NCBI RefSeq assembly: GCF_964204645.1
Contig: NC_134025.1
Coordinates: 18,079,101 to 18,143,100 of the forward strand
Direction of reading: 5' to 3'
Length of the DNA stretch: 64,000 nucleotides
DNA from: Tubulanus polymorphus
Taxonomy: Eukaryota > Animalia > Nemertea
Part shown: positions 1 to 59,100 of the stretch, in pieces
How positions within the stretch are numbered: position 1 is the stretch's first letter
Layout: every line of letters starts with the position of its first letter
Notes under the pieces: generated by a model
Seen by the model: only the letters and a program-made list of their open reading frames with translations
What the model was told of the DNA's origin: nothing
The model's database searches: none
Position numbers and translations under genes: made by a program

Positions 1-554
1 ATTAATTATTGAAAATTCGAACAACGTTGTAAACCTTAACAATGGTTTTTCACCCCATAATAAACTTATATCAAAATTCCTCTGTAAACTGGTTAAACTC
101 AACACTTGATTTCCCCTTTGATTATTTGTTATTTGTTCTCTCATCAATTTCGTCTCTGACTTAACTTGTATTCACCTTTGTTTTAATTTAAGTGCCCTCT
201 AGTTTGTCTTTCTTTTTAATACTGACTTTAAGTTTCATTTATATTTATACTCACTATTGTTGTTTATAATTACCCCTTAGTTTGCTTCCCTTTAATCTAT
301 TTTAGCGTGTAACTGTTTCTACGTTAATTTTCCTTTAGTTTGTATCATCTCTGATTACTTGAATTATTCTCTTTGTCTCTGGATTGTATATATATCTAAT
401 AATTTCTGTAGTATCTCATTATTCCTGAAGATGACTATAAGGATATAGTCGAAACGTTGAAATAAACTACTATCTCGAAGTTTCATTTTCGGACTTTTTA
501 TTATCATTGTGGGATTCTCTCCTCATCGCGTCAACACGGATATAGTGTTCTACC
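1..554 (+). mobile_element. Penelope-like retroelement 3' end (GIY-YIG C-terminal tail plus pLTR), inserted in the viral integrase gene
   Basis: 2-109 reads LIIENSNNVVNLNNGFSPHNKL..., resembling the tail of the Penelope ORF at 49491-49745. Hammerhead core at 425-458. TGTGGGATT motif shared with the other two Penelope remnants. Confidence 0.8.
421..463 (+). ncRNA. Minimal type I hammerhead ribozyme (Penelope pLTR)
   Basis: CTGAAGA (425-431), stem II GACTATA/TATAGTC, GAAAC (451-455), then palindromic AACGTT. Confidence 0.8.
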
Positions 555-593
555 AATCGTGAAAATCAACCAACATATCAAATCCACAAGAAA

Positions 594-1502
594 ATGGATA
601 AAACTTATTTAACAAGAAAAGTTATGGTTTCATATATCGATCAACAATGGCAAGCAGATTTAATTGACAGGAAGAATTTAGAAGAACACAACAAAGGATA
701 TTTCTGGATATTAAATGTTATACATGTATTCAGTAGATACGCATGGTCAATTCCAATCAAAAATAAAACTGGTATAGAAGTTACAAATGCTTTTAAAAAT
801 ATATTTAAAGAAGCTATTCCAGGTAAGATACAATTTGATGAAGGTAAGGAATTTTATAATAAACATTTTAAAAAACTATTATCTGATAACGATGTAGAGT
901 ATTTTTCAACACACTCAGATAAAAAAGCATCTATTATAGAAAGAATTAATAAAACATTGAAAACTAGAATGTGGAAATATTTTACTGCTAATGAAACATA
1001 TAAATATATCGATGTGTTAGATGATTTAGTGAAAGGTTATAATAATTCAAAACATAGTTCTATAAATATGAAACCTATACAAGCTAGAAAAGAAGATAAT
1101 TCAGTTTGGAATAATTTATATGAAGCATTTGTTACACATGATTTTGGAGAACCTAAATTTAAAATAGGGCAACATGTTAGAATATCTAAATATAGAAAAA
1201 CCTTTTATAAAGGTTATACCCCTTATTTTACTGAAGAAATATTCAAGATTAAAAAGATAATATTAACTAAACCTTTTGTTTATAAATTAGAAGATTTAAA
1301 AGTTGAAGAAATATTAGGTTATTTCTATGAACAAGAATTATCACTTGTACCAAATCCAGATGAAATAGAATACAAAATAGAAAAAGTATTGAAAACAAAA
1401 ACTCTTAAAGGAAAAAAGTATTCTTTGGTGAAATATAAAGGGTATGATGATAAATTTAATGAATGGAATTTATCTAGTAAAATTAAAAGAATAAATGAAT
1501 AA
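594..1502 (+). CDS. Retroviral-like (rve) integrase with C-terminal chromodomain, Polinton type; true N-terminus disrupted
   Basis: DDE triad in WQADLID / IQFDEGKEF / IIERINKTLK. Chromodomain YKIEKVLKTK...LVKYKGYDDKFNEW. In-frame upstream NQPTYQIHKK matches copy D. Confidence 0.92.
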   Translation: MDKTYLTRKVMVSYIDQQWQADLIDRKNLEEHNKGYFWILNVIHVFSRYAWSIPIKNKTGIEVTNAFKNIFKEAIPGKIQFDEGKEFYNKHFKKLLSDNDVEYFSTHSDKKASIIERINKTLKTRMWKYFTANETYKYIDVLDDLVKGYNNSKHSSINMKPIQARKEDNSVWNNLYEAFVTHDFGEPKFKIGQHVRISKYRKTFYKGYTPYFTEEIFKIKKIILTKPFVYKLEDLKVEEILGYFYEQELSLVPNPDEIEYKIEKVLKTKTLKGKKYSLVKYKGYDDKFNEWNLSSKIKRINE

Positions 1503-2093
1503 AGATTTATTTATATTTGAACCGCATAATATGTTAGTTTCCGGGGTAACCAACTGTGATAAAACACATTTCATATTAGACTTGTTAGAAACTATTTATA
1601 AGAATCATTTTGATAATATAATATTATTCTGTCCTACTTATGAAATGAATAAAACATATAATAGAGATAAAGTTAAGATAAAAAAGTTTATTATATTAGA
1701 TCCTAAAACAGTAAAAGAAAATTTAGATAATTGTATTAAAATAGCAATTGATATTTATAAAGGATCAAATACATAATTCATTATAGATGATTGTGCAAAT
1801 TTACATGAGAGAAAGAGAGTTGTGTTATCTCGCTTTCTCTGGGAGACATTTTGGGATAACAACATGGGTTTTAAATCAAAAATATAATTCAATTGTTAAA
1901 GACTTTAGGGAGACTAAGATTTCTAGTTTTATTTTATAACAAAGATAGAAAATCTATGCAACAATGATTGGAAGAAAATCAAATTATACCTACTGAATTA
2001 CATGATGAATATATGAATAAATTAAAGAATAATAAAGGTTCAAAATTACTTCTGAGGCTTCAATTTCCATATGAATATAAATCTATAAAATAA
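1495..2093 (+). pseudogene. A32/FtsK-like DNA packaging ATPase (disrupted)
   Basis: Walker A GVTNCDKT (G>D). After the stop at 1776 come Walker B FIIDD and, frameshifted, SGRHFGITTWVLNQKY. Confidence 0.85.
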
Positions 2094-2149
2094 TGTATTT
2101 TAAGTATTAATGTATTAGATATGTTAATTAAATAATTTAAATTATTTCA

Positions 2150-2782
2150 AATTAATACCCCCTTATGTCTTTATGGTCTTTAGTAGTTTTAGTACTTTAA
2201 GTACATAAAGAATAACTCTATTTTATCAGTACTGAATAAAATTATTTTTAAAACTACTAAACTACTAAAGACAATAAAGACAATAGAGACATAACAAACA
2301 CATAGATTTATCATTGCTGAATCAAATATAAATAATAAATCTGTGAGATAAATAAATCTTTGATATAATTATTGAATCAAATATATATAATATATCTATG
2401 TGTGTTTGTTGTGTCTTTATTAACTTTAGTACTTTTAGTACATAAAGAATATATCTTTATTTTATTAGTACTTAGAAAAATAAATATATAAATAATTTTC
2501 ATATATGATAAATCTATGATATTTATCATTATTGAAACAGTAATATATAATAAATATGTGTGATAAATAAATATTATTATTGAAACAGTAATATATAAAA
2601 TCTATCAGATGAATAAATATAATTATTGAAACAGTGATATATATATATATATATATTTATGTATTTATCTCTGTAGTAGTTTAGTAGTTCTATTATATTT
2701 TTGAAACTACTTATAATATAAAGATTTATTCTTTATGTACTAAAAGTACTAAAGACAATAAAGACATAAGGGGTATTATATT
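2150..2782. repeat. AT-rich non-coding region with inverted and direct ~55-bp repeats between the convergent viral gene blocks
   Basis: TAATACCCCCTTATGTCTTTA...AGTACATAAAGAATAA (2153-2216) is the reverse complement of 2726-2779. Partial copies near 2250-2295 and 2410-2452. ATTATTGAAACAGT repeats at 2528-2635. Confidence 0.75.
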
Positions 2783-2793
2783 CATATTTTAGA

Positions 2794-3920
2794 TTACTTT
2801 TCTGATTCTAATTCTAAAAACAATTTGAGCCATGCATCTTTCAATTCCTGTGATTTTCTATTACCTTCAACTTCACCTAATAGTTTGGTGTGATAACCAT
2901 CAACAGCATTCAAATTCTTAGCATACAATTCATAAGTTAAATAAATATATTGCTTTAATTTGTCTTCACTTATATTTTTATATTTATTTTTTGCATCATT
3001 TCTTATTTCATTTATAACATCCTGTGAAAAATCTTCATAACTGTAATATTGAATTATTTCATCAAAGTTATCACTTTTATCATCATAATTATCATTAGCA
3101 GCAACTTTTGTCAATTATATTAAAAAATCTGTATTTTTAAATTTTATGAAATAATGCATACCTGAATAATCACCCGGATATGTTTTTATACGTGTTCAAT
3201 CAGTTTTTAGACTTGTTTTGGATTATTTCTTACATAATCGATAAAATTTGATCTATATAATTTCCTATGATTATTATTTTCGATATCAAAAAATACACTT
3301 GGTGCTCTATAAAGACGTTTTGAATCAATAGCTTTTATTGTATGTTCAATAGAATTATCATGTTTAATTTTATCTTTAGGTAAGACAACAACATTACACT
3401 TTTCACATATATTTCTCTCTACATTATCAAAATGTATTTGAGTTAATTTATGCTTTGAAAAAATACTACGACTTATATATTTATCACATTCTTCACAATA
3501 TTTATCATTATTATTATCTTCTTTAGCATTATCATTATCAATTTCACTATCATTATTAAATTCATTTATAGTCTTGTTCTTATTTTTCTTATACTTGAGT
3601 GAATTAAGATGAGTTGCCCAATTCGTATAACTTTTATACTGTTTACATACGTAACAATATTTTTCATTTGTCTTTTTGGTTTTGATATCAGGTTCAATCT
3701 TATCATCATTCGATGTAGAAGGTATAAAATTATCTTCTATTTTAGATTCAATATTATCTTCTTTTTTTATTTCAATATTATCTTCTATTTTACTTATTCT
3801 ATATTTTAATTGATTAAAGTATTCTCCAAAATACTTACTGTATTCATCATGAGGTATTATATCATATATATCTGGTATCATTTCACTTGGAGTTTGTATT
3901 TCATATATTCCTCCTTCCAT
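2794..3920 (-). pseudogene. Viral zinc-finger protein (three CxxC...H...H fingers), probably one frameshifted gene
   Basis: CYVCKQY..THLNS, CEECDKY..KHKLTQIH and CEKCNVV..KHDNSIEH in ORF 3207-3920. Coding-like sequence bridges to ORF 2794-3114. Confidence 0.65.
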
Positions 3921-3944
3921 TTATTATAAAAAGTTTCATTAAAA

Positions 3945-5203
3945 TTAAAATTCTAATACATAGTACACACTATTTAATTGAGAATTTACGATATTTAATT
4001 GCGCGTCAGATATAATATAAACGTGCATTTTAAAATTTAAGCTTCCTTTTTTCTTTTTCATGAATAATTGTATTCCATCTTTAGTGTTCTGTAGTTTTTT
4101 CCCAGAACCATGTAATGAATTATCCTCCGTTGTTCTAAAATCTAACCATAGTGCATATTTATTACCGGTATAAAAATCAATTTGATTAATATTACAATTT
4201 TCAGATGATTTTACTTTTTCATTCATAAAATGTTTTCTAATTCCTGGCCATTGATCTATCATTCTCATTACTTGACAAAATATTTTATTTGCTATACCTT
4301 CGATAGTTATTTCTACTTTTGTTATTTCTGGATTATAATACTTATCAACCTGTATTGCACCATTAGAATATGTTGCAACGGTAAAAAATATTAATATACC
4401 TTTAATAGATCTTCTTGGGAAGTTAATATTCTCATTAATTATTTCATCATGTGCATTAATAGTTACAGTTTTAAATTTATCAATATAATCATATAATAAT
4501 GAAAATCCTTGATTGTATTGAGTTTGAATTATACTTGAAATATTTTTATGTTACTGTATCATATTCTAAACATATATTCGATAATTTATAACTCATATCT
4601 TTATTAACGCTAGATATTACAATTTCATTAACTGGAGCAAATGTTATCTCAAATATAACGTCTTCTTGAATTGCGTATTTATATAAAGGTGCATTATTAT
4701 TTATCAATTCAAAGTCTAATGGGATTTTATATTTGCTTCCATATATACTTTTTATCAATTTATCTAGAGCATTAGTTAATATTGCATTATGTGCTTCTGA
4801 TCTTAATTTATTTTGGTTTTCTGATTCGATGCCTTGAAATATCATATTATTTCTATTTTCTTTAGTTAATCATAAATCTTTATAATGCATAAATAAATTA
4901 TAATCATCTAATGAGTTAAACTGTTTCTGGACCAATCTTTATAGTTAATTTTTTAATCAAATATCTTCCAACATTATCAACAACATAATTATTACTATTA
5001 CCGGTTACTTTTATATCAGCTGATAGATAAATACTATTTGGAACATAAAAAGTATTTTGTGTTAATCGAGGGATTCTAACATATAAAGTTTCATCAGGAT
5101 TAATATAAGAAGGATTATGAGTAATTATATGATGAGATCTTTCTGCTTTAATAGCATTAGATATTCTAGGATTCTTAGAAGGATTTATATAACTCCCACT
5201 CAT
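3945..5203 (-). pseudogene. Putative major capsid protein (double jelly-roll/hexon-like), frameshifted
   Basis: Three collinear ORF pieces total ~420 codons, beta-rich (HHIITHNPSYINPDETLYVRIPRL; NICLEYDTV; KYALWLDFRTTEDNSLHGSG). Best-conserved gene against copy D. Fold is inferred from size, context and recollection of similar animal Polinton proteins. Confidence 0.7.

Positions 5204-9630: not shown

Positions 9631-9631
<1 letters not shown>

Positions 9632-9725
<94 letters not shown>
9632..9725. repeat. (TA)n microsatellite
   Basis: Uninterrupted TA run of about 94 bp. Confidence 0.98.
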
Positions 9726-9728
<3 letters not shown>

Positions 9729-11152: not shown

Positions 11153-13155
11153 ATGGAATACAACAAATACTCAAATTTAACCCTAAACGAGCTTAAAATC
11201 ATCCTTCGCAGCAGGAGTTTGAAGGTTTCTTGGAAAAAAGAAGGATCTTGTTGAGAGGTAGGTAGCCTTCAGGGGCGGATCTAGACGGGAGCACGCGGAG
11301 CACGTGCTCTTGTCGCAAATTCTGAGTGCCCTTTTTGAAAAATGTGCGAAATGAAAAATTTTTTAACCCATCTCTTAAAGAATTGTTGCAGAATGTCATT
11401 TTTGTGTCTCAGGTGCCTGGAAATTGCATTTAAATGGGTTAAAATTCAAAAATTTTCTGGGGGAGACCCAGACCCCCACGAAAATAAATAAATAGATTAA
11501 TAGATAGTTGCACTGCAGATTTCTGGATTTCGATTTCTGGGAAAACAGCTTCTAATGTTCTTCTCTAACGTTCGGAGCTGCTGAATTGGCTTTTCCACTA
11601 TGCTGGTCAGAATCGGAGCTTGTTCTTACAGTTATCTTGTACTTTCTTAGATTTTCATTACAGATTAATATTCAATGACGTGCATTTTCATAAAGATGAG
11701 CCCACTGTTGAATACCATATGGATCTCCCTGATTATTCACAGTACAAAGATATTCATAGTCAAATGCTGGATGATTTCCCGGAGGTTACCATGGACAGAC
11801 TGAATGATTATTTGACCACTTGCAGCAAAACATTTGATAAGAAATGTGAGGAGTTATATAATGGGGGGTAGGTCAAAGTTTATGCACTTCTTAAAAGTTA
11901 GTTTTTGTTTAAATGCCTTAACTTGGGTCTACTCATTTGCTTCAGGTATATTCAATATATGCGTACCTGCAAGAGCGATGACAAGATATATGTGACGGAC
12001 AATATATGGGCCGAGATGAAGAAGTCTGTGGCTTACAGGACGGATATCGCATTAGACAAGTTAGGTGTGGTGCAGGAGTGCCAGTGCGAATGTGCGGTGG
12101 GACAGGGTCCGGCTGCCCATTGCAAACATGTTAGCACATCATTGTACGCTTTATCAAGATTCTGTTTAACTGGAAGAATTCTCACAGAGTTGACCTGCAC
12201 GCAAGTACGTTACCAATCGAGTCTGCCTTTTTAAACTTTCAATAGATTTGTTGAAAATGTGGAAAATGATCTCTAATTTTAGGTTCTACAAAAGTTCCAT
12301 CAGGCAAAGGCCTACAAAGGAAGTCCCGTAAAAACAAGAAATATGACTGGAAGTAAAGGCGCATATATATATGATCCTCGCCCACCGTCGAAAAGACCTG
12401 CTGAAAAAATACAGGAAGATACAAGAAACATTATAATCAATTGGCCGGTAAGGTCCTCCATTCTGCTTAAACACATCACATTTATTTAATCGGAATTTAT
12501 GACTGGCCCCTTTTGAATTAATAAGATCAACTTGCAAATGTATATTCTCATAAAATGGCATGGTTGTTAGCAATTATTTTGCTGATTTGTGTTCTTTTGA
12601 CACAGTGATTTGTATTAGAAATTATTCCTTTCAGAACAAGGTAGCAAGACAGCCGATTTTACAATCCTATGGTCCAGGATACAAGGTTTGGCTCATGACC
12701 ATGATTATCAAGAATTTTCAATGGAACACAAGTTTTTGGTGGATGAAAAGGTATGGAAATCACTATGCACCGACATTTTTTTGATGCATGTTGTCTATAG
12801 ATTTGGCTTCAATGAAATGTTTTCCCATTTATAGTTAGTTCGTGTTTGTATGGAAGACGTCAAAGAAATCGAAGAAAGAACTCAAGGTCTAAGTAACAAC
12901 AAACTTTGGATGGAAGAACGAAGGAAGCGGATAACGGCCTCAAATTTCGGAACAATTTGTAAAATGACCAGTGTCAGAAATATAAATCAACTTGTGAATT
13001 CAATGATCTCACCAACAGAATTCTGGTCGAGAAGTATCCAACATGGAAAAAAATACGAGGATATAGCTGTAGATAAATTTGAACGTACAACTGGACTTAA
13101 AAGTAAAAAATGCGGTTTATTCATCTCGGCTAAAACCCCTGTCCTAGCCCATTGA
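11153..13155 (+). pseudogene. SAP + SWIM zinc finger + YqaJ (lambda-exonuclease-like) multi-exon gene, truncated
   Basis: SAP LTLNELKIILRSRSLKVS..KKDLVER; SWIM CQCECAVG...HCKHV; YqaJ RTQGLSNNKLW..ERRKRITASNF..HGKKYE..CGLFI. GT-AG introns near 11258, 11868, 12206, 12448 and 12751. Confidence 0.8.
11270..11490 (+). mobile_element. hAT-like MITE fragment in the first intron
   Basis: Begins CAGGGGCGGATCTAG. Internal GGGGGAGACCCAGACCCCC. Right TIR not found. Confidence 0.4.
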
Positions 13156-13447: not shown

Positions 13448-14129
13448 TTATTTCTCAAAATTATTAAATTGAGGAATGCATGGTTTGAAATCACATTCTG
13501 TTAAATTATAATTTATTAACGTTCCAAATTCTTTAACATTCTTCAATGGTAAAATGTTTAATAAACCAGAATTACAAGTTATATCTTTAGTTGCTTCGAA
13601 TGTTTGTGTAGGATCGATTAAATTGCAATAAATATAAAAGTGTGTTAAAGGTATTAAGTTTGGTGTAGCTTCAATATTTGTAAAAGATTTATCTGGAAGA
13701 ATTCCTAACAGTTTAGCTGTAGGTTTTTTTACCATAAATTTATGTTTTTCAATATCAGCCAACCTTATCTTTATTTTGTTAGAACTCTCAATTTTTAAAA
13801 ATCTAATATTAAACCCGGAATTATTACCTGACTTGTGCCATGCTTTTAATTTCTTGTGCCAATGTATCTAAATTATACAATCCTGGTTTTAAATATATAT
13901 AGGCCCATTCATTCTTATTTTTATTAAAAATTAAAAAGGTTAACAGTTTTAAATGTTCAACAGTTTTATTCGATATATTGTAAAATGAGTTACATAAACT
14001 TATATTTACTAATTATAAATCTACACAATTCTTAAATTCTCTATCTAATTGTACTAGTAAATTATGTGATTTATAATTTGTAAGTCTTCTTGAATCAACA
14101 AATATTCTATATTCTTTTAATTCTACCAT
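13448..14129 (-). pseudogene. Putative minor capsid protein (penton, single jelly-roll)
   Basis: MVELKEYRIFVDS..NLLVQLDREF; LKPGLYN; AKLLGI; FYIYCNLID; GLLNILP. Motif order is typical of Polinton/virophage pentons. Confidence 0.65.
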
Positions 14130-14139
14130 TTATTTTACA

Positions 14140-14488
14140 TATTTTCTTATTCGAAATCTATTTCATGGTGCCCTTTTTCATTCTTACCCTTATAAATGAA
14201 ATAGAAATCTCCAGAATATAATTCTTCTAAATCTTCACTTGATAATCTATGAAATCTATCTGGTAAATATGTTCTGAATTTAAATGTATTTCATTTTTAT
14301 CCTTCATATTCTAAGTGGATAACTAATTTATCTCCATATTTGTTAGTAACTGTATCAATATTTGTAATTAGATATTTCTTATGAATTGTTAATTCTGTTA
14401 ACTTCTTAAATTTATAATCTACTGATTTGACATTTGAAGTATCTTTGATTCTATCTAAGAATTCACTGTGTTTTTGTTTACTCTCCAT
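14140..14488 (-). pseudogene. Small viral protein, possibly OB-fold ssDNA-binding
   Basis: KKLTELTIHKKYLITNIDTVTNKYGDKLVIHLE..FRTYLPDRF. Homologue at 42140-42486. Function is inference. Confidence 0.45.
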
Positions 14489-14547: not shown

Positions 14548-14669
14548 AGTAATAGGGAATAAGTTGTTTCAAGTCAAAGGTTGAAGGGTCGGAAAATAAA
14601 TTCGAGTGTGCGAGAATTTATTTTTCGACCTTTCGACCTTTGGCTTGAAACAACTTATTCCATATTACT
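14548..14669. repeat. Terminal hairpin of virus copy A
   Basis: Two 56-nt arms with 51/56 complementarity and a 10-nt loop GAGTGTGCGA. Bounded by AGTAAT...ATTACT. Confidence 0.92.
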
Positions 14670-18745: not shown

Positions 18746-20002
18746 CTCTCCGGCAATGAAAATTTCTCCTTTTAGTCCATCGATCGGGAAAACCGGCTTA
18801 CTATTTATAGTGATAGTGAAGAGATTCTGCGATTCCGTCATTCTGCGATATGACAACACCGGGAAAGTGCATACAGCTAGATCTGACATTTAATCTATGA
18901 TTTATGAAATTGGCGATCCAAAACTGAAAGTGTTATCAAGTTTGAAATGGTTAACATTCTAGTGCGAGTTCAAAAACATCCAATATCAGATATCAGCAGA
19001 GAAAGGTTCAAACATAATTCAGTACTGATACCAGGAACGGTGAAATTGTTCTAAACATTCTATAGCTGCTGTTGTTACACATGAATTATTGATTGAATGA
19101 TTATTATTTTCGATATATACTCCCTACTTCAGTATAAGACACTCTTAAGACGCCAAAAACTTGTCGTATTCTGAACGGACAGTTTAGAAAGAAGACAGAT
19201 TCCTGACGAATATAATAAAGTGGGCTATTGTAAATGCGTCTAATGTCTTGGGGGTGCCATCTTTAAAAGCATCGAAACCCTAGCAAACCTCAATACTTCG
19301 GGAAGGTGGATCTCTGCCGAAGCGAAATCGTAACAAATGCATTGGATTAACGCATGCTGGCTTAAGTTTAGTTTTATTCGATTCGATATTAATTCATGAA
19401 CTAATAATTGCAATCACTTATATGCCCTCGTACTGGTTCATTGACTAAAGTAAGAAGATTACATCGAAAATGAACCGAACATCTTTTCACAGGAGTCATG
19501 TAATGCATAGGCAAAATGAATTACCCCGAACATGAACTACTGTAGAAAGTTGTGTTTTCCAAGATTTTGATTTGCCTAACTTATTTAGCAGGCAAAAATG
19601 AATTATTCGTTCATTTCCAAATTGTTTGTATTCCTGGTGTTATCTTGAATCTTTGGGTAAAGACCAGTCGATGGTCCGACGAGACAGCTTTTGCTAAAAA
19701 GCAGGAAATCTTACTCTTGAGTTAATTCTTTGGTTAAGTGTTGGTCTGTCGAATCCTGAGCGGAAATATTTACTAATACTATCGAATAAGTGTCAAATAG
19801 GATGTGAGGTAGGGTGTCAGAGTTAACATTGACAGGTGCATAAATAATTTCATTGAATTTTCATATCTAGTGCACAGGTGTAGGAAGATATTTCATACGT
19901 TGTTTTTGATCCAATTTGACAAGATCCGAACATCCGACGATTGTAGACAGTTTTCAAGGCACACTGAGCGACTGGAAGATTGAATTCAACTACAAAATTT
20001 AC

Positions 20003-20248
20003 CTTCGTAATCAATTTTTCCGTCGTTGTCAACATCCGCTTCGCGGATCATCTCGTCAGCTTCCTCGTCAGATAACTTTTCCCCTAAATTTTTCATTACG
20101 TATTTCAGCTCTCTTGCATCGATGAATCCATCGTGATTAAAGTCAAATCTATCGAATGCTGCCTTCAATGCCGCTTCTTCGTCTTCCTTTGTTTTCTTCC
20201 GTTTGGCAATAACACGACAAAACTCGGCGAACTCTATCGAGTCATTTG
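20003..20248 (-). CDS. Exon of a host calmodulin-like EF-hand gene
   Basis: Canonical EF loops [12 protein letters not shown] and [11 protein letters not shown]. Acceptor TTCCTTCCAG and donor GAAG|GTAAAT. Too divergent to be canonical calmodulin. Confidence 0.85.
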
Positions 20249-20389
20249 CTGGAAGGAAAAACAATAAACGTACAGAACATTGAGCATTACGTGTCCCATA
20301 AAATTTTGTAGAGTATGGTGTCTTTGTGTGTGGTTTCCTACTGATTCTACTACCTTTAAGGCAAAGTGGGACATTGATGGAATATTTCT

Positions 20390-20735
20390 AGCGCCATCTT
20401 TAACTTTATCTTGTATAGAATTATCATCATTTGTTGGATTATCTGGTTTATTAGGAGTAGGTGTAGATTTTAATGAATTTGATATAGCTTAAACTATTGT
20501 TGTAAATATCATAGTTAAAGCTGTTAGAATTGAAAGAATTGTTATAACTTAAATAATTATTTTATTCTATCTTTTAATGATATTTCAGAATTTTGGTTTT
20601 ATTAACAAATTTTTGAAAATAACTTTTAATCTATTGACATTATAATCATATGATTTTAATAATACATCTTTTTTTCTTTCTTTTATTCTATATTATATTT
20701 TAAATCATCAATTTCTTTTTCTAAACTTTTCTTTT
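20390..20735 (-). mobile_element. Polinton-like virus copy C, left fragment
   Basis: Homologous to 5425-5780 and 59325-59670. Continues collinearly at 39630. Confidence 0.85.
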
Positions 20736-21148
20736 TTAGGGTTTTCTGTTGCTTCACAGAAAACCCTATTGAAATTCGCGTGATTATTAGGGTTTTCTGT
20801 TTTTTTCACAGAAAACCCTATTGAAATTCGCGTGATTATTAGGGTTTTCTGACTTTCGTCGAAAACCCTTTTGTAATTCTGTTGATTGTTATTATTATTA
20901 TTTACATATTTTCCCCTTTTTTCGCACATAAAATTCATCTTCTATCAGATTCGACAACTAACTGCTTCTAATTGAAATGTAGAATTCTGATAGTAATATA
21001 ACACGCATTCGCTCCGCGTAGATTATACCTATGCACTCTCCGTCCTATTTTAAACTTAAAATTACTTACTGAAAGATAACACCGGATGATAGTAGCAATC
21101 GCGACTCGCCCTGTCCGGTACTCCCACTAATGATAAAAACAGCGTCCT

Positions 21149-35736: not shown

Positions 35737-35855
35737 TTATTTAAGAGAAAAATTAAACAGTTTATAAAATATTTGCTAGTTTTTAATTAAATATTTTATA
35801 ATCATTTTAAAAATATTAAACTTTTAAATGATTAAATCAAATAACAATTAAATTT

Positions 35856-37116
35856 ACAGCCAAACAATTTATCATTTCAACTGTTAAACAATTTATCATT
35901 TCAACTGTCAAAATATTTAATATTTCAACTGTCAAACAATTTATCATTTCAACTACCAAACAATTTATCATTTTAACTGTCAAACAATTTATCATTTCAA
36001 CTGTTAAAATATTTATCATTTTAACTGTCAAACAATTTATCATTTCAACTGTCAAAATATTTATCATTTCAACTGTCTTATCATTTCAACTGTCAAACAA
36101 TTTATCATTTTAACTGTCAAACAATTTATCATTTCAACTGTCAAACAATTTATCATTTCAACTGTCAAACAATTTATCATTTTAACTGTCAAACAATTTA
36201 TCATTTCAACTGTTAAAATATCATTTTAACTGTCAAACAATTTATCATTTCAACTGTCAAAATATTTATCATTTCAACTGTCTTATCATTTCAACTGTCA
36301 AACAATTTATCATTTTAACTGTCAAACAATTTATCATTTCAACTGTCAAACAATTTATCATTTCAACTGTCAAACAATTTATCATTTTAACTGTCAAACA
36401 ATTTATCATTTCAACTGTCAAAATATTTATCATTTCAACTGTTAAACAATTTATCATTTCAACTGTCAAAATATTTATCATTTTAACTGTCAAACAATTT
36501 ATCATTTCAACTGTCAAAATATTTATCATTTCAACTGTCAAAATATTTATCATTTCAACTGTTAAACAATTTATCATTTCAACTGTCAAAATATTTATCA
36601 TTTCAACTGTCAAAATATTTATCATTTCAACTGTTAAAATATTTATCATTTCAACTGTTAAACAATTTATCATTTCAAACAATTTATCATTTTAACTGTC
36701 AAACAATTTAACATTTCAACTGTCAAACAATTTATCATTTCAACTGTCAAACAATTTATCATTTCAACTGCCAAACAATTAATCATTTCAACTGTCAAAC
36801 AATTTATCATTTCAACTGTCAAACAATTTATCATTTCAACTGTCAAACAATTTATCATTTTAACTGTCAAACAATTTATCATTTCAAACAATTTATCATT
36901 TTAACTGTCAAACAATTTATCATTTCAAACAATTTATCATTTTAACTGTCAAACAATTTATCATTTCAACTGTCAAAATATTTATCATTTCAACTGTCAA
37001 AATATCTATCATTTCAACTGTCAAAATATTTATCATTTCAACTGTCAAAATATTTATCATTTCAACTGTCAAAATATTTATCATTTCAACTGTCAAACAA
37101 TTTATCATTTTAACAG
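35856..37116. repeat. 24-bp minisatellite (~50 copies) within virus fragment B
   Basis: Unit AACTGTCAAACAATTTATCATTTC with a variant AACTGTCAAAATATTTATCATTTC. Confidence 0.95.
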
Positions 37117-37170
37117 TCTATTAGATATTTAAATCTTTTAACTCAATTCAATAATTATAATGTAGAATTG

Positions 37171-37818
37171 TTACTCTTTACACCAGTTTTTATGTTTAAT
37201 TGTTTCATAATGCTTTGATTCATGTGATTTTAAATATTTACCTCCGCAATAACAATGCACTTTTTCATTAGGATTGAATTTTCTAAATTCATCATCTAAA
37301 TTACATTGAACTGCAATATTTGATGAATTTTCATTATAGATAATTTGTTTATTATCAAAATTGAAATAATATAATTGTCTTTTTTCAATTCTTAAGTTAA
37401 TCAAATCATTGTAATCTTTTGAAAGTATTATATCATCATTTCTTTCATTGAAAGGAGTTTTAAGAATATTAATTATGTTTTCATCTAAAGTTCCTTTAAA
37501 ATTTAAAACTGTATTGAATATTTTAGGATTTTTAACGCCATTATCAAAAGTATCTACTAGTTCAGTAAGTAAATATGTTTCATTTGATAATATTTGATTA
37601 ATCATAGTAATATTATCGATTTTATAATACCTTGCAGACACTAAATTTGTAGCTGAAATATAATTTTTAATGTAAAACTGTGAAAATGATTTATTGGTTT
37701 CATTGATTTCGATTTTAAAGTTGGGTTCTTCTTCTTTCTTCATTTTTATAACAAATTTTTTATTAAAATGAATCCAACGCATATAAATATTCAATGATTT
37801 ATGAATTATTTCACTCAC
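37171..37818 (-). CDS. Viral protein with a C-terminal CxCGG..H....H zinc finger
   Basis: KVHCYCGGKYLKSHESKHYETIKH. Open 215-codon frame in very AT-rich DNA; the true start may be downstream. Confidence 0.65.
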   Translation of the reverse strand: MSEIIHKSLNIYMRWIHFNKKFVIKMKKEEEPNFKIEINETNKSFSQFYIKNYISATNLVSARYYKIDNITMINQILSNETYLLTELVDTFDNGVKNPKIFNTVLNFKGTLDENIINILKTPFNERNDDIILSKDYNDLINLRIEKRQLYYFNFDNKQIIYNENSSNIAVQCNLDDEFRKFNPNEKVHCYCGGKYLKSHESKHYETIKHKNWCKE

Positions 37819-37839
37819 ACTTTACTCACACTTTCTTCT

Positions 37840-38005
37840 AGCGAGTAGAAAATGAAAAATAAATTCGAGCGTGTGAGAATTTATTTTTCATTTTTATGAG
37901 TTTCGCGAGTAATTCAAGTAGAAATTGTTATTATTTTTATGTTTTTCATTTTTTACGAGCTCGACCGTTCGACCTTTGGCCTGAAAGCCCATTACCCCTA
38001 TTACT
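37840..38005. repeat. Partial terminal hairpin of fragment B
   Basis: Inner stem AAAATGAAAAATAAATTC / GAATTTATTTTTCATTTT is kept. Outer right arm CTCGACCGTTCGACCTTTGG..TATTACT is present, outer left arm is absent. Confidence 0.75.
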
Positions 38006-40803
38006 TACGACAAGCCTACCATGCATATGTACTAGAAACACAACTTTTTCCCTCTCGTCGGCCCTACAGTGATGTTACTATAACTGGTGCCATTATAATA
38101 TGGATAGGATTTGGTCAGGACTAGCCTAAAGTCTAATTCAGTCTATGTACTAATTCACTCCATAGGCCTATTTTTAAAACAATACAGTGAAATATTCACA
38201 CGCAGAAAGGCTAATTGATTTGAGCCATGTGATTAAGTTTGGCCAGGCCTTCTCTGACCTGCTGACATTAATAGTCAAACCAAAACGTTCATGTGGTCAC
38301 GGCTTGTATTACCAGAAATCATTGTAGGCCTGTACATTTTGCTGTTCGTAGGTTTGGTATACCGATTTCTCCATTCTTGACTGATAAGTGTACGGTACAG
38401 CTGTACGCATTATACAATTGTTCCAATGGGAATAGGGCCTATTGATTGGGCTTATTATTTCCTGCTTTAGAATACTGAAATAAGCCCAACGTTCATTCAA
38501 ATATCCAACATCGGTGAAAGTTTGATTACTGTATAGGCCTACATGTACTGTAGGTTTTCATGTTGTATGAATATTTTGCAGTTCAAATGGGTATGATGCT
38601 GATTCCAATGTAGAATGCATGCAGTTAGATGGTTAAGGACAGTCAACACCAAGATATCTCTCTTCGACCGAAGTTGCACCGTAGAAGATCTGATTCTTTC
38701 AACTCAAGGAAAGTGATTCAACACGATCGACATAACACTGGAATAGGTTTGCAGTAACTAACGGTTCATTTCATTTAGTCCTATGTACTTTTTAGCCAAT
38801 TTGGATTTGATTGTAATTGAAACTCTGGAACAAAAGACGAAAAAACAAGTTATGCTTGATTCTCATGTTCAAATTTAATTCAAATTCAAATTTATTTTAT
38901 TACATCATATTTACAAAGCATATCATTGGTTCATACAGTAATAAAAATTAGGACAGAACAAATATTATTACAGAATTTCCAAAAAGGCAATAAATTTGTA
39001 TAGCTAAATGAACATTATTTTTCTAATAACTCAGATCAAGAATGACTTTCCCGTTTATTAGGAAACACACGCAACTAGTGGAATAGGTTTGATTTACACA
39101 CATGGTGCAGGTATCAATTGTTTATCACTATAGAATTTGTAATCCATAAAAGCCAAAATCAACATCAGCTGGAAACCCAGACCAAATCAATTCATAATTT
39201 ATTGATTGAATCTACACTACTATATATGTATTTATTCAAATATTTCAATAAAAACATTAACTTCTTAAATCTATTCTAAATCATAATACGTTCTTATCTG
39301 TGAATTCACTCAATCTATCGACTCAGCAGGTGCTTAAGATGAGTTCTTAATAGGACAGATCCATTTTTAAGCATGGTGATAATACAGTATCATGATGTTT
39401 GAATGCCAAAATAAATGCCTGGTCAAATAAATTAATATTTGTTGATTGTACGTCCGCGTATGTTCGGTTTCAAAGCTGAATCATATTTGACGTTAACACA
39501 GTGTTTGCATATTAGGTTCGAATCTGTCAATGCATTTTATTTTATGTATCGGTATTTCAATTTACTACAATTCCCATCATTCTGAATGGCCTTGCAGAAA
39601 ACCCGTCATCGCTGCTTGGCAGCTATATTTTTAATTCAATTTCTTCGATTACTTTACAATCTCTAATTTTAATTGTACAAATTCGTTATTAGATTTAAAT
39701 AATTCATCTTCTAAAGTGTTAATTTTATGAACTCTAATCATTTTATTGTGCACAATTTTATCAGCTTCATTTCTTATACTAATAATTTCTCTAATTGCTT
39801 TATCAGAAAATATATTAAATCTTCTAATTCTTGATCTGTTGCATCCACTAATCCATTCGGTAAAATGTTTTCAGTTTGAACTCTTCTTGAATTAAGTTTA
39901 CTAGTTTTGGAAGTTATATTCAGTTTAGATGTTGTTTCTGTTTCTAAATTATTATTGATTGTTTCAAATAATTCATTAAATCTGTGTTTGAATACTCTTT
40001 TATTTTGATTTATTTCTGTGTCGGTAAGATTTTCTATTTCATTACTATTACTCATTCTTTTAATTCTAGATGGTTCTAAATTACTCAAAGTTGATTCTGC
40101 TAATATTGTATTTTGATTTTTATAAGACATATTAATATAATAATCATCTTTCAAATAATAATAATATTCATCTAAAAATTTTAATTCTCTTACTAAATGT
40201 CTGGCGCCTCTATCATTTATATTGTATCTGATTATTTATATTGTAAATGATAAATATATTCATTATATTCTAAATTTTGTTTTACTAAATCTGGATTTTC
40301 ATTTTTAGGATTCATTCTCGATTCAGTTCTTCTATCAAACTCGTCTGTTGATGGATCTTTAGAACCGCTATCTGCTAAATTAGAATTATATGTTGTATCA
40401 TTATCATTATCAATATAAGTATCAGCAGACAAATAATCATCATTATTAGTATTGACATAATTATTATTTCCCATGTCTTGCATTTCATAATCTTCTCCAC
40501 CTTCTACATCCATTTATATCTTATAAAAATCAAAATTTCGACTGATTGAAAATCTCGGTGTGAAATTTTCTGATTATATAATTCTTTATTAATATAATCC
40601 ATATAGTTTTGTCTTTTTTCTTTATATTCTTCTGCTGCTTTATTATATTTTTCTAATGCTAAGTTATGTCTTTTTTGTTCTGATAATGAACCATTTTTAT
40701 CAATATGCTTAAATAAATAACCACCACCTGTAAATGCTAAAGCGTTGACAATTGCCGATCCTATAATGGTTATAATTGCAGATGCCATTTATTTAGTAAA
40801 AAA

Positions 40804-41031
40804 TTACGCGTTAATAGGAGGAATATATTTTTGTTTTTCTGAATAATCAATTGTTAAATAAGATAAAGTTACTGCTAACGTTAATTTTAAAATATCATTT
40901 ATATCAAATCTATCAACATTAATATTTCCAATTTTAAAAACTTTCTTCAATAACATTGTATAACCAACAGTTCCAACTGATAGTAATGCTCCATTATATA
41001 AACCAGTTATTATCCACTTATTATCACTCAT
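40804..41031 (-). CDS. Small viral two-TM protein, intact copy
   Basis: 75-aa ORF with two hydrophobic segments. Homologues in A and D. Confidence 0.7.
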   Translation of the reverse strand: MSDNKWIITGLYNGALLSVGTVGYTMLLKKVFKIGNINVDRFDINDILKLTLAVTLSYLTIDYSEKQKYIPPINA

Positions 41032-42567
41032 TTATTTATCAAAAAATCACCTTCTTCAAAATATTTAGTTATCTTAGTCATAATTATTTCAACATTTATA
41101 ATATTATTTGTTTCATTTTTATATATTTCAGTTATAATCTTTTTAATATCATCAATGATTAAATCTTTATCTAAATCATAAAATCTCGAAGAATTTCTAA
41201 TTTTTATCGGTAAATTTTTCTACATTAAAAGTTTCTTTATGTATTGTTGTTTCATAATCAAAAGATGTTTCATGAAAAAAATGCAATATCTTTAATATGT
41301 GTTATTACATCATTAATATCAAATTTCATTTCTTTCTAACGTTTAAAATCAAATCCAAAACATATACTCGGTCCTATCTTATAACTAATTCGTAAATAAC
41401 AGGGAAATTATTTAAATCAATTAAGTAATTATAATGATTTTTTATTTCTAAATTAAAATTATAAAATTGTGGAATACAAGGTTTGAAATCACATTCAGCT
41501 AAATTATAATTTATTTGTGTACCGAATTGTTTAACATTTTTAATGGTAAAATATTCGATAAACTAGAATTACAAATTGTATCTTTATTTGCTTCAAATAT
41601 TTTTGTAGGATCAATTAAATTGCAATAAATATAAAAGTGTGTAAAAGGTATTATATTTGATCTACCTATCTATCTATGTTTCCTGTAACAATATCTGGTT
41701 TAATTCCTAACAATTTAGCTATTGGTTTTTTTATAATAAAAGAATGTTCATTTTCATCATCTTACTTTATTTTTATTCTATTAGTGCTATCACTTTTCAT
41801 AAATCTAATTAAAAATTTATCATCACTTCTAAATTTCAACCGTGCTTTTCTATTAATTTCTTGCTCGTATGTTTCTCAATTATATAATCCTGGTCTTAGA
41901 TATAAAGTAAACCATTGGTTTTTATTTCTAATAAAAATCAAAAAAGGACTTTCTTCAATAGTTTTATTTGAAATATTACAAAAAGAATTACATTAACTAA
42001 TATTTACTAATTTTAAATCAACGCAATTTTTAAATTCTCTATCTAATTGTACTAGTAAATTATGAGATTTATAATTTGTAAGTTTTCTAGAATCATCAAT
42101 TATTCTATATTCTTTTAATTCTACCATTTATTTTACATATTTTTTCATTCGAAATCTATATCATGACATCCTTTTTCATTCGTACCTTTGTATATGAAAT
42201 AGAAATCACTAGAATATAATTCTTCAATATCTTCACTAGATAATCTATGAAATCTATCTGGTAAATATGTTCTGAATTTATATTTATTTCCTTTTAATCC
42301 TTCATATTCTAAGTGAATAACTAATTTATTACCATATCTATCTATTAGTAATTGTTTAAATGTGAGTAATTAAATATTTCTCATATAATGTTGATTCTGT
42401 TAACTTTTTGAATTTGTGATCTACAGATTTGACATTTGTAGTATCTTTGATTCTATTTAAGAATTCACTATGTATTTGTTTACATTTATTATACATATTT
42501 CTATTAAAATTGATTTCATTAATATAATCTTCATTTATATAATGTTCATAAATATGAATATTATTAG

Positions 42568-42718
42568 AGTAATAGGATAAGTCTTGTTTCAGATTAAAGG
42601 TCGAAAGGTTGAGTGAGTAGAAAATAAAAATAAATTCGAGCGTGTGAGAAATTATTTTTCATTTTTTATGAGCTCGACCTTTCGCCCTCTGGTATGAAAC
42701 AAGACTTATCCTATTACT
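42568..42718. repeat. Terminal hairpin of virus copy C
   Basis: 151 nt. Outer 24 nt perfectly complementary (AGTAATAGGATAAGTCTTGTTTCA / TGAAACAAGACTTATCCTATTACT). Loop GAGCGTGTGA. Confidence 0.92.
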
Positions 42719-43406
42719 TTTCAGTTTGGGTAGCTGCGCGGTCTTCTGAATGTCGGTATCCTGGATCTGCTCAGGCTTGGTGTTCTGATGATTATGATTG
42801 TCGAGGAATTTTTTTATTTTCAAGAGCCTGGCTGCGTCTTTCATTCGAATCTTTAATTTCTTTTTCGAATTCATCGTCGTCTTTTCGCACATTTCTTGGA
42901 TTCTTACTGCTAGTTTTTCTCTCGATTCGTGGACCAGTCGCATGTCGTCTAATAGTTATTCAATTTCGGTTGCATCGTCTTCAGCGATATTGACTGCTTG
43001 CATGAGTATTAAAATTCGCTCGTGGTTTGTATCAAATGTATCGTTGTCTGTTTGTCGTCGCTTTCGGAGCTGGTCCAGCGTTTCTTTTTCTTTCGGCATT
43101 TTGATCGTCTAGAGGTGTTCGATTTGATAATACCCTGGTCACGGCACCATTTCGTTACGAGGGTACCGGTTACGAGGGTAACGGTGGAGTATAGAAAAGA
43201 ACAACGTGGCTGCTTGTTTTAGATATCATAGCAAGAGTGTCGTTTATTTTACGTAATGGTTATAAATAGTATAGTACGCATGCGGGGGCTGGCAAGGATG
43301 AAGAGAAACAGCAGATGTAAACAGCTATATGTATGAATAGAATTAGTAACGCTTGACTTCAATATAATCATGTAAGTTGGCGAGAATTAGGACGCAGTTT
43401 CCGACA
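42719..43406 (-). mobile_element. BEL/Pao-like LTR retrotransposon 5' fragment (LTR, PBS, gag start)
   Basis: Minus strand: LTR begins TGTCGG at 43406. PBS TGGTGCCGTGACCAGG (43134-43149) is complementary to the tRNA-His 3' end. ATG at 43099 opens a charged coiled-coil ORF with a stop. Confidence 0.7.
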
Positions 43407-50487: not shown

Positions 50488-52132
50488 GTACGATAAGCCT
50501 ACCATGCCTACGGCTACGTACTACAAACACAACTTTTTCGCTCTCGTCGGCCCTACACTGATGTAACTATAACTGGTACTGTTATCACATGGATAGGATT
50601 TGATTAGAACTAGCCCAAAGTCTAATTCAGTCTATGCACTATTCATTCCATATCATTAAAACAATACACTGGAGTACACAGGCAGAAAGGCTAATTGATT
50701 TGACCCATGTGATTAGATTTAACTAGGCCTTCTCTGACCTGCTGACATTAATAGTCAAACATAGGTCCAAAGCGTTCATGTGGTCACGGCTTGTATACCA
50801 GAATCATTGTAGGCCTGAACATTTAGCTGTACATAGGTTTGGTATACCGATTTCTCCAATCTTGACTGATAAGTGTACGGTACAGCTTTTCGCATTATAC
50901 AATTGAACCAATAGGAATAGGGCCTATTGATTGGACTTAACATTTCCTGCTTTAGAATACTGAAATAAGCCTAACGTTCATTCAAATATCCAAAAATCGG
51001 CGAAAGTTTAATTACTGTGTACATGTATTGTAGGTTTTCATGTTGTGTGAATATTTTGCAGTTCACGTGAGTATGATGCTGATTCCAATGTCAAACGCAT
51101 GAAGTTAGATGGTCAAGGACAGTCAACACCAAGATATCACTCTTCGACCGATGTTGCACCATAGAAGATCCGATTCTTTCAACTCAATCAAAGTGATTCA
51201 ACACGATCGACATAACACTGGAATAGGTTTGCTGTGACTAACAGTTCATTTCATTTAGTCCTATGTACTTTTAGCCAATTTGGATTTGATTGTTATTGAA
51301 ACTCTGGAACTGTTAACGAGAGAGAAGTAAGACAAGTGGAAAAACACAAGTCATTCTTGATTCTCATATTCAAATCGAATTCAAATCCAAATTTATTTTA
51401 TTACATCATATTTTCAAAGCATATCATTGGTTCATGCGGTAATAAAAATTAGGACAGAACAAATATTATAATAGAATTTTCAAAAAGGTATAGAATTTCT
51501 ATAACTAAATGAACATTATTTTTCTAATAACTAAGATCAAGAGTGACTCTCCCGTTTATTAGGAAACACACGCAACTATTGGAATAGGTTTGATATTAAC
51601 ACACATGTTGCGGGTATAAATTGTTTATCAGTATAGAATTTGTAAAATATAAAAGCCGAAATCAACATCGGTCGAGACCCAGACCAAATCAATTCATAAT
51701 ATATTGATTGGATCTACACTACAATACATGTATTTATTCAAATATTTCAATAAAAAGATTGACTTCTTAAATCTATTTCAAATCATAATACGTTCTTATC
51801 TGTAGATTTACTCAATCTATTGACTCAGTAGGTGCTTAAGACGAGTTCTTAATAGGACAGATCCAGTTTTAGCGTGGTGATAATACAGGGTCGTGATGTT
51901 TGAATGCCAAAATAAATGCCTGGTCGAATAAATTCATATTTGTTGATTGTATGTCCACGTATGTTCGGATTCACAGCTGTATCACATTTGACGTTTACAC
52001 AGTGGTTGCAAATTAGGTTCGAATCTGTTAATGCATTATATTCTATGTATCAGTATTTCAATTTACTAAATTCCCATCATCCTAGTGAATGGCTTTGCAG
52101 AAAACCCGTCATCGCTGCTTTGCAGCTATATT
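50488..52132 (+). mobile_element. Family I HINE body and 3' tail, paralogous to 38006-39629
   Basis: Collinear similarity over 1.6 kb. Tail GCAGAAAACCCGTCATCGCTGCTTTGCAGCTATATTT. Confidence 0.8.
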
Positions 52133-52952
52133 TATACTTAGAAATTCTAACATTTTGACTAACTTTAAATTTAGGTTCACCAAAATCCTCTATAAAAATA
52201 AATTATTCCAAACAATTTCAGCATTTTCAGGTTTTCTAGCATCAATAGGTTTCATTCCAATAGAAGAATGACAAGAATTGTTATAACCTTCTATCAATTT
52301 TGGTAAAATATCAATCCACTTATAAGTATTATTTGCTGTAAAATATTTTGACACTCTTGTTCTTAATGTTCTTTAGATTGTTCAACAACTGCTGCTTTTT
52401 TAACCGATTTTGTTGAAAAATATTTAATATTATGAAAATCTAAGAGACTATGAACAAATGAGTTATCAAATTCTTTTCCATCATCAAATTGTATTTTTTT
52501 CTGGTTTTAGTCTTCCACCCAAAAGAAACTTTCTTAAAATTAACGATGTTTGTACAGCGTCTTTTCTGTAAAGTGGGAAGCTCCATACATAACGACTAAA
52601 AATATCAATTATATTTAATATCCACCAATAATCATTATTATCTTTTTTAAGATTTTTCATATCAATCAAATCTCCCTGCCACTGTTGATCTTCATAACTT
52701 ACCATATTTTTACGAGTCTCTAGTTTATTTTCTAACAATTTTTTTGTGTGTTGTATATGTTGGTTGTTCTAACATAAAATCAATTATATCTTTTTATTTT
52801 ATTAAATTTTGTTGGATTATCTTATTTAATTTATCCTGTTTTACTTGGTACCATATATTTTTTGCAGAAGAATAAGCAACCGAACTCTCAGGGTTATAAT
52901 ATAAATTTCTTTAATATTGTTCTTTAGTATTCGGAGTTTTTTTATCCCCCAT
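52133..52952 (-). pseudogene. Polinton-type integrase, copy D (frameshifted, 3' end cut)
   Basis: YYNPESSVAYSS N-terminus; WQGDLIDM; IIDIFSRYVW; DDGKEF; KAAVVE. Confidence 0.85.
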
Positions 52953-57856: not shown

Positions 57857-59100
57857 TTAATATTGAATACTATCTAATTGAGAATTTATAATATTCAATT
57901 GCGCGTCAGATATGAAATAAATATGCATTTTATAATTTAAACCTTTTTCATGAATAATTGTATACCATCTTTTGTATTTTGTAATTTCTTCCCAGAACCA
58001 TGTAATAAATTATCCTCTGTTGTTCTAAAATCTAACCATCATGCAAATTTATTACCGGTATAATAATCAATTTGATTAATATTGCAATCTGCAGATGATT
58101 TTATTTTCTCATTCATAAAATCTTTTTTTTAATTTCTATCCATTGATCTATCATTCTCATTCCCTGATATAAAATATTTTATTTGCTAAACCTTCAATTG
58201 TTATTTCCACTTTTGATATTTCAGGATTATAATAATTATCAACTTTTTTGCACCATAAGAAAATGTTGCAATGGTAAAAAAGTATTAATATACCTTTGAT
58301 AGATCTTCTTGGGAAGTTAATATTATCAGTAATTATTACATCATTTGCATTAATAGTTACAGTTTTAAATTTATCAATATAATCATATAATAATGAAAAT
58401 CCTTGATTGTATTGAGTTTGAATTGTGCTCGCAATATTTTCATCAGTTAATGTGTCTTATTCTAAACATATATTCGATAATTTATAACCCATATCTTTTA
58501 CAACGCTGGATGATACAATTTCATTAACAGGGGCAAATGTTATTTCGAATATAATATCTTCTTGTATAGCATATTTATATAAAGGTGCATTATTATTTAT
58601 CATTTCGAAGTCTAATGGAATTTTATGTTTGCTTCCATAAATCTTTTTTATTAAATTATCTGCAGCATTACTTACTATTGCGTCATTAGCCTCAGATCTT
58701 TATTAATTTTGGTTTTTTTGATTGGATGCCTTAAAATATGATATTATTTCTATTTTCTTTTGTTAACCATAAATCATTATAATGCATAAATACATTATAA
58801 TCATCTAATGAAAAAGCTGTTTCTGGTCCACTCTTTACAACTTATTTTTTAATTAAATATCTTCCAACATTATCTACGACATAATTATTATCATGACCAG
58901 TTACTTTTATATCAGCTGATACATGAATACTATGTGGAACATAAAAAGTATTTTGTGGTAATCGAGGAATTCTAACATATAAAGTTTCATCAGGATTAGT
59001 AAGTATTAGATGGATTATGAGTAATTATATGATAAGATCTTTCTGCTTTAATTGCATTAGATATTCTAGAATTCTTAGAAGGATTTATATAACTCCCACT
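57857..59100 (-). pseudogene. Putative major capsid protein, copy D (heavily frameshifted)
   Basis: Collinear nucleotide similarity to 3960-5203. Confidence 0.75.

Follow-up and report, generated by a model that had tools for sequence, protein, structure and literature searches.

A Maverick/Polinton-type provirus in the 64-kb stretch of DNA analysed here (the window) ends in a palindrome with two distinct zones. The tips of its arms are homogenised, and the middle of its stem carries strand-polar mismatches. This two-part signature, which is new here, points to a hairpin formed by a single strand with its 3' end at the terminus. The palindrome is real and non-random, and it is terminal in the provirus. 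The evidence comes from two full copies (A and C) and one partial copy (B) in the 64-kb window, together with one outside study. Copy C begins with AGTAAT and finishes with ATTACT (Table 1). As single-stranded DNA it folds with -41.4 kcal/mol (z -11.5), and none of 200 shuffled sequences was equally stable. Perfect inverted repeats of at least 20 nt within 250 nt are found at two sites in 64 kb, copy C and a (TA)n microsatellite. A perfect 96-nt palindrome at 9631-9726 was rejected as comparable because it is merely (TA)n microsatellite sequence.

Table 1. Features of the provirus fragments, the terminal palindromes and their flanks (positions in the window)
Feature	Positions	Strand	Remarks
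rve integrase with chromodomain, linked to the copy A fragment	546..1502	+	PF00665 E 2.5e-08; PF00385 E 4.3e-05
A32-like packaging ATPase, 5' part of broken gene	1495..1776	+	PF04665 E 0.0038, below the Pfam cut-off
Major capsid protein, broken gene	3948..5203	-	Intact relative 70-82% identical, predicted double jelly-roll fold
Terminal palindrome of copy A, 122 nt with 56-nt arms	14548..14669	+	Watson-Crick 51/56
Copy B, core hairpin and lengthened outer arm, without inner tip	37841..38005	+	Adjoins a different gene
Host repeat cut at the copy B junction	38006..39636	.	Match to 50489-52139 begins at the first base of the flank
Decayed A+T-rich viral gene block in copy C	39636..42567	-	Homologous blocks adjoin copy A and occur at 59.7-64 kb
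Broken small gene beside the copy C hairpin	42148..42480	-	5' end approximate; copy A counterpart 14150-14488
Copy C terminal palindrome, 151 nt	42568..42718	+	+ strand has its 3' end at the boundary and is the better-folding strand
Inner arm of copy C, 70 nt	42568..42637	+	First 24 nt exact complement of 42695-42718
14-nt block, missing in copy A	42612..42625	+	Partner at about 42661-42675, likewise missing in A
Conserved 10-nt apex GAGYGTGYGA	42638..42647	+	In copies A, B and C
Outer arm of copy C, 71 nt; terminal ATTACT at the virus-host junction	42648..42718	+
Frame from a different repeat, interrupted by the copy C junction	42719..43105	-

The eukaryotic DNA of the window contains satellites and repeats, along with several A+T-rich pieces that derive from a single virus family. 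The rve integrase and the double-jelly-roll capsid identify a Maverick/Polinton-type (Polintoviricetes) provirus; the A32-like ATPase is a weak match on a broken gene. The integrase, an rve enzyme as in Maverick/Polinton elements, scored above the PF00665 cut-off, and a second copy is located at 52133-52950. The named proteins related to it, which are 44-49% identical, belong to a spider and a lancelet, and an animal host is therefore likely. A structure model of an intact capsid relative (P0121, 70-82% identical to the pieces in the window; pLDDT 87.4) matched the capsids of iridovirus, PBCV-1 and mavirus in a structure search (best E 4.3e-17). These matches predict the double-jelly-roll major capsid protein of Maverick/Polinton elements.

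Other expected genes gave no match in these incomplete fragments. A tblastn search with one distant protein-primed polymerase (pPolB) reached a best E of 0.69, and Pfam scans of 27 and 60 proteins found no match to it. The opposite end of the element is missing, so a pPolB gene may lie outside the window. Pfam scans of the short broken frames in the window found no match to an adenain-type protease or a minor capsid protein. The frame at 13448-13867 is a minor-capsid candidate by its position. Nicking enzyme, HUH/SF3 Rep (NS1), helicase and polymerase genes were all absent among the scanned frames of the incomplete fragments.

Additional features were observed in and around the viral fragments. 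Compared to 546-5203, the segments at 52133-52950 and 57860-59100 show two integrase lineages (49% and 83% identity to P0001) that are oriented oppositely with respect to the capsid gene, which suggests two subfamilies or an inversion. A very A+T-rich spacer at 2130-2799 separates the converging integrase/ATPase and capsid blocks and contains imperfect inverted repeats (2409-2482 and 2696-2769, 88%). A fragment of a YqaJ/alkaline-exonuclease gene (11569-13155; PF09588 E 3.6e-08) is found in an insertion within a viral copy. The frame at 19986-20387 is EF-hand and calmodulin-like by eye, and adjoins a 340-bp viral fragment (20394-20737). Between 22535 and 30600, a 31-bp satellite is located inside a unit of about 2.8-2.9 kb that is present in three repeats.

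The palindrome is the insertion boundary of the decayed provirus. Over the 1.2-1.3 kb that end with the palindrome, copies A and C are 77% alike; their outer sides are unrelated. The outer flank of copy B matches an uninterrupted copy of the host repeat from the first base after ATTACT. In run X1, the summed contig depth, which is not a copy number, falls about 40-fold, from 11,555 at 42680-42743 to 260 at 42744-42807. The inner-side homology of A and C, the repeat flank of B and the fall in depth all agree with the original prediction that this is a terminus. The end motif AGTAAT is present at all three junctions. It has the AGT/AG start of Maverick/Polinton ends and is one letter from the (AGT)2 motif. 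All three ends in the 64-kb window point the same way, and an end facing the opposite way is absent from it. In neither A nor C is the palindrome bracketed by a direct repeat. The frame cut at the copy C junction has motifs of what we take to be a BEL/Pao retrotransposon gag; the Pfam scan, which included this frame, gave no support to the retroelement labels of the flanks.

The pairing in copy C is perfect for the first 24 nt only, and is Watson-Crick in 58 of 71 columns overall. The arms had been described as about 15 nt longer in C than in A, and they measure 70 and 71 nt, compared to 56 nt for both arms of A (+14 and +15). The core and the 10-nt apex are common to all three copies, as had also been noted, with the apex at 14604 in A, 37867 in B and 42638 in C. 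Self-pairing, claimed for each copy, is found in A and C; copy B is without the inner tip and makes no full hairpin. It may represent an end that was damaged, or the opposite end of the element. The apex, first taken for a protein-binding loop, may be structure instead of an open loop, since it can itself close through tandem G·A pairs. In copy C, 42638-39 would pair in this way with 42646-47, followed by two more pairs, and the apex is closable by tandem G·A in 3/3 copies. A tandem G·A/A·G bubble is also present in the stem of copy C, within the extra block (42615-16 opposite 42670-71), and in copy B. Adjacent G·A pairs can stack without disturbing B-DNA (PMC11014236). We infer that tandem G·A pairs form in this hairpin.

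Comparison of A and C revealed concerted change between the arms. Two 2-nt indels separate the tips of A and C, arm position 26 is substituted, and the 14/15-nt block is missing from A; every one of these differences is found in both arms. A MAFFT alignment of the four arms (71 columns) contains 16 copy-specific, 1 arm-specific, 18 single-arm and 36 invariant columns, and most of the 16 copy-specific columns come from these few indel and substitution events. The pairing energy is -51.6 and -43.8 kcal/mol for arms of the same copy, compared to -25.2 and -35.7 kcal/mol for crossed arms. The tips of the two arms agree at 24/24 nt in C and 25/26 nt in A. Gaps aside, arms of different copies are 83-89% alike, close to the 83% between the two arms of C, and the copy-specific signal thus comes down to three indels and the paired change at arm position 26 rather than many compensatory substitutions. 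With full copies in the window limited to A and C, the concerted signal depends on three or four independent events.

A third type of tip is found in one contig of run X4 (record 10), next to a third flank. It is complementary on both sides at 16/16 visible letters, the two loose ends of the contig being assigned by coordinates. The contig seems to run directly from the apex to the outer tip, without most of the outer middle arm, and has a depth of 71.5, compared to 6.4-19 for the other listed X4 pieces. It counts against a stem that is always intact, yet would fit a tip copied from the inner arm. Copy B, without its inner tip, and this contig, seemingly without its outer middle, indicate that an intact stem is not universal.

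The middle of the stem behaves differently from the tips. Here the letters of the inner and outer arms stay distinct across copies. The transition mismatches on the + strand comprise 10 G·T and 1 A·C (4:0 in A and 6:1 in C; p 0.012), or 9:1 if a shared site is counted once (p 0.021). DNA folding favors the + strand over the - strand in A (-49.2 vs -40.4 kcal/mol), and only slightly in C (-41.4 vs -39.3 kcal/mol). The mismatches suit only the strand with its 3' end at the terminus, and together with tips that change in concert they point to a real single-stranded fold-back. The G·T bias could arise from single-strand deamination without selection, in which case the + strand would still have been single-stranded at some stage.

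Variants in the contigs were set against the base on the partner arm of copy C. X2 and X4 come from a single sample, the four runs together from one study, and the variants are unphased across arms. Among the 30 variants listed for X2 and X4, 7 are the majority in both runs. Five of these make Watson-Crick pairs, two make G·T pairs and none is pair-breaking. Many of the other 23, which are minority variants, break pairs. The 8 tandem G·A positions contain none of the 30.

The original prediction offered either selection on the structure or copy-back of one arm on the other. Both appear to apply, in different zones: the tips are homogenised and the middle retains arm-specific letters. Copying of whole arms does not account for the middle, since it would erase the inner- and outer-arm letters that are kept there.

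On balance, we favor a model in which the + strand folds back as a single-stranded 3' hairpin and its tip is re-copied from the inner arm, likely in self-priming or end repair. The + strand, with its 3' end at the terminus, would become single-stranded, and its 3' tip would anneal to the inner tip. The final 24-26 nt of the outer arm would then be rebuilt on the inner-arm template, so that a change in the tip would reach both arms in one step. The middle of the stem would merely be filtered for pairability, with selection keeping the fixed bubbles. A host or viral polymerase would use the paired 3' end as its primer and copy into the genome, or this end would serve in end repair. From the copies compared here we infer the hairpin in vivo, the templating of the tip, the selection on the middle and the priming role. 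An inverted (flop) form was not seen: 3/3 copies in the window have one orientation, and there are no outer-type letters at inner-arm positions among the matches listed, in contig runs where the comparison favors the reference orientation. Simple parvovirus-style terminal resolution would give such a flop form.

The gene next to the hairpins of A and C has three relatives at 61-66% and 111 clusters at E <= 0.001. The model of its intact relatives has a pLDDT of 66.8, and SSB/OB-fold proteins top three structure searches with weak matches (best E 2.2e-03; Z 5.2). These weak but consistent matches predict an OB fold like that of single-strand DNA-binding proteins. The predicted OB-fold protein, encoded next to the hairpin, would help priming. 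The gene beside copy B (37171-37821) is intact, encodes 203 aa, and has an upstream A+T motif in common with the gene beside A. An enzyme for reopening the hairpin was not identified among the fragments; the gene beside B gave just a sub-threshold GIY-YIG lead (0.88). Just inside copy B, at 37810-37830, two apex heptamers GTGTGAG are found on the opposite strand, possibly as putative duplex binding sites. A 24-bp tandem array (35767-37118) is located between small genes in the A+T-rich viral fragment beside B, and one of these genes has a weak C2H2 zinc-finger match.

The hairpin or a cruciform could instead be a recognition structure for packaging, excision or integration. Replication would then start by protein priming or a primase, and the arms would be kept matched by selection with occasional template switching. 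The conserved bubbles suit recognition by proteins, and in vaccinia the hairpin mismatches are required in maturation, not in DNA synthesis, in the part of that work available (PMC8956199). Vertebrate Mavericks have an (AGT)2 end motif (PMC8097293), to which the AGTAAT end is similar. A primase would be in keeping with group 2 Mavericks, in which, by one partial source, pPolB is often replaced or lacking and helicase-primase genes are frequent (10.64898/2026.06.19.733378). A duplex cruciform, however, folds both strands, whereas the mismatches favor the strand with the 3' end alone. Tips that are identical within a copy yet copy-specific are also left unexplained, and we regard a recognition role in place of fold-back as unlikely.

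We consider it improbable that the palindrome is a by-product. In this reading, an ordinary terminal repeat of an ancestor folded back by accident, and neutral processes in the host genome, either gene conversion or template switching, have kept the result alike since. Neutral conversion should erase the arm-specific mismatches throughout, and these recur in A, B, C and the contigs and are strand-polar. The two worst mismatches of copy C (42651 and 42685) are missing from 92-100% of contig depth and are private decay. The independent events are few, and damaged forms exist (copy B and record 10 of X4), as an accident would allow. Accidental annealing is also offered as an alternative in the Halocafeteria preprint (10.64898/2026.07.28.741278).

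G-U and tandem G·A pairs are common among RNA motifs. The stem contains both, and could be that of an outward + strand transcript, a small-RNA precursor or antisense RNA. RNA folding favors the + strand as well (-77.6 vs -62.1 in C; -80.7 vs -63.1 in A). The stem, however, stops exactly at the integration junction and starts with the end motif of the element, and no Rfam family reached threshold, the five weak matches having E 0.16-0.87 and the best reaching 20.7 bits where the gathering score is 96. A role as RNA is therefore very unlikely.

A separate miniature inverted-repeat element (MITE) that landed beside viral fragments could produce the layout of end motif, short spacer and inverted end motif and the peak of contig depth over the core, but is hardly credible, as A and C have the same viral neighbor and unrelated outer flanks and no direct repeat surrounds the palindrome.

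The fold-back of a 3' strand has parallels in known systems. A 2026 preprint, the one report of terminal palindromes that we found, describes them for Halocafeteria seosinensis virophage subtypes 1, 2, 5 and 6 and PLV subtype 4, mostly with non-pPolB replication genes; hairpin priming or accident is proposed, and tests are called for (10.64898/2026.07.28.741278). There, as here, a palindrome ends an integrated element with an rve integrase and a jelly-roll capsid, and 3' hairpin priming is proposed; no pPolB was seen alongside the palindromes here. Those elements are protist virophages and PLVs, whereas here the capsid is Maverick-type and the host likely an animal. The palindrome of subtype 5 is 52 nt long, compared to 122-151 nt here. 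Target duplications and both ends are shown for Halocafeteria, and one end type only is found here. Concerted change between arms and strand-specific mismatches, both seen here, are not reported in the section of that preprint on the palindromes.

The provirus shares with Mavericks/Polintons (adintoviruses) the rve integrase with chromodomain, a candidate A32-like ATPase, the double-jelly-roll capsid and an end starting with AGT (PMC8097293, PMC10748475, PMC8502044). As far as the available parts of these sources go, vertebrate and nematode Mavericks and adintoviruses have plain terminal repeats, whereas here each end is itself a palindrome, and pPolB and protease have no match in the fragments here. 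Parvoviruses have an imperfect 3' palindrome, and the LuIII left end was reported in a single orientation, as seen in all copies here; their 3' hairpins prime synthesis into the genome (PMC1185569, in part). Unlike in parvoviruses, no NS1/Rep gene is present in the scanned frames, integration is by rve, and the capsid is different. The flip-and-flop telomeres of poxviruses have conserved mismatches in the terminal hairpin, but are closed and occur in two inverted forms, whereas the copies here are integrated and have one orientation (PMC8956199, in part).

In the literature outside subscription papers and Repbase, we found no report of palindromic ends in animal Mavericks; the available parts of PMC11296320 and 10.64898/2026.10.13.758929 added nothing on such ends. 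The apex pattern had no match in viral contigs. Its 18 matches in metagenome contigs were all rejected as unrelated: 17 are in a bacterial-looking intergenic repeat, one is inside a gene, and none has palindromic arms. The 17 loci (L001-L016 and L018) belong to a family of short bacterial-looking intergenic palindromic repeats whose match to the apex is a coincidence. In viral contigs, protein scans gave no locus with the integrase alone, two loci at 40% with the integrase alignment, and none with the capsid or the terminal gene. Among prokaryote genomes, three short contigs had a capsid at 34-42%. These contigs (L021, L022 and L023) carry Maverick-type capsid genes in prokaryotic MAGs, and are likely contamination. 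A comparable palindrome was not found in the five loci (two viral-contig and three prokaryote-binned), which are partial.

The signature bears on how replication is initiated in Maverick/Polinton-type elements without a protein-primed polymerase. A Maverick-type animal lineage may have given up protein priming. In a manner similar to parvoviruses, a G·A-stabilised 3' hairpin would prime the host polymerase, with the element's own SSB encoded alongside and rve integration kept; this scenario is tentative and we think it rather doubtful. Hairpin priming can be told from accident by mismatches that suit only the 3'-end strand and by tips that change together. The signature can be tested cheaply wherever a host assembly contains many copies, and it supplies a defined DNA substrate for biochemical work.
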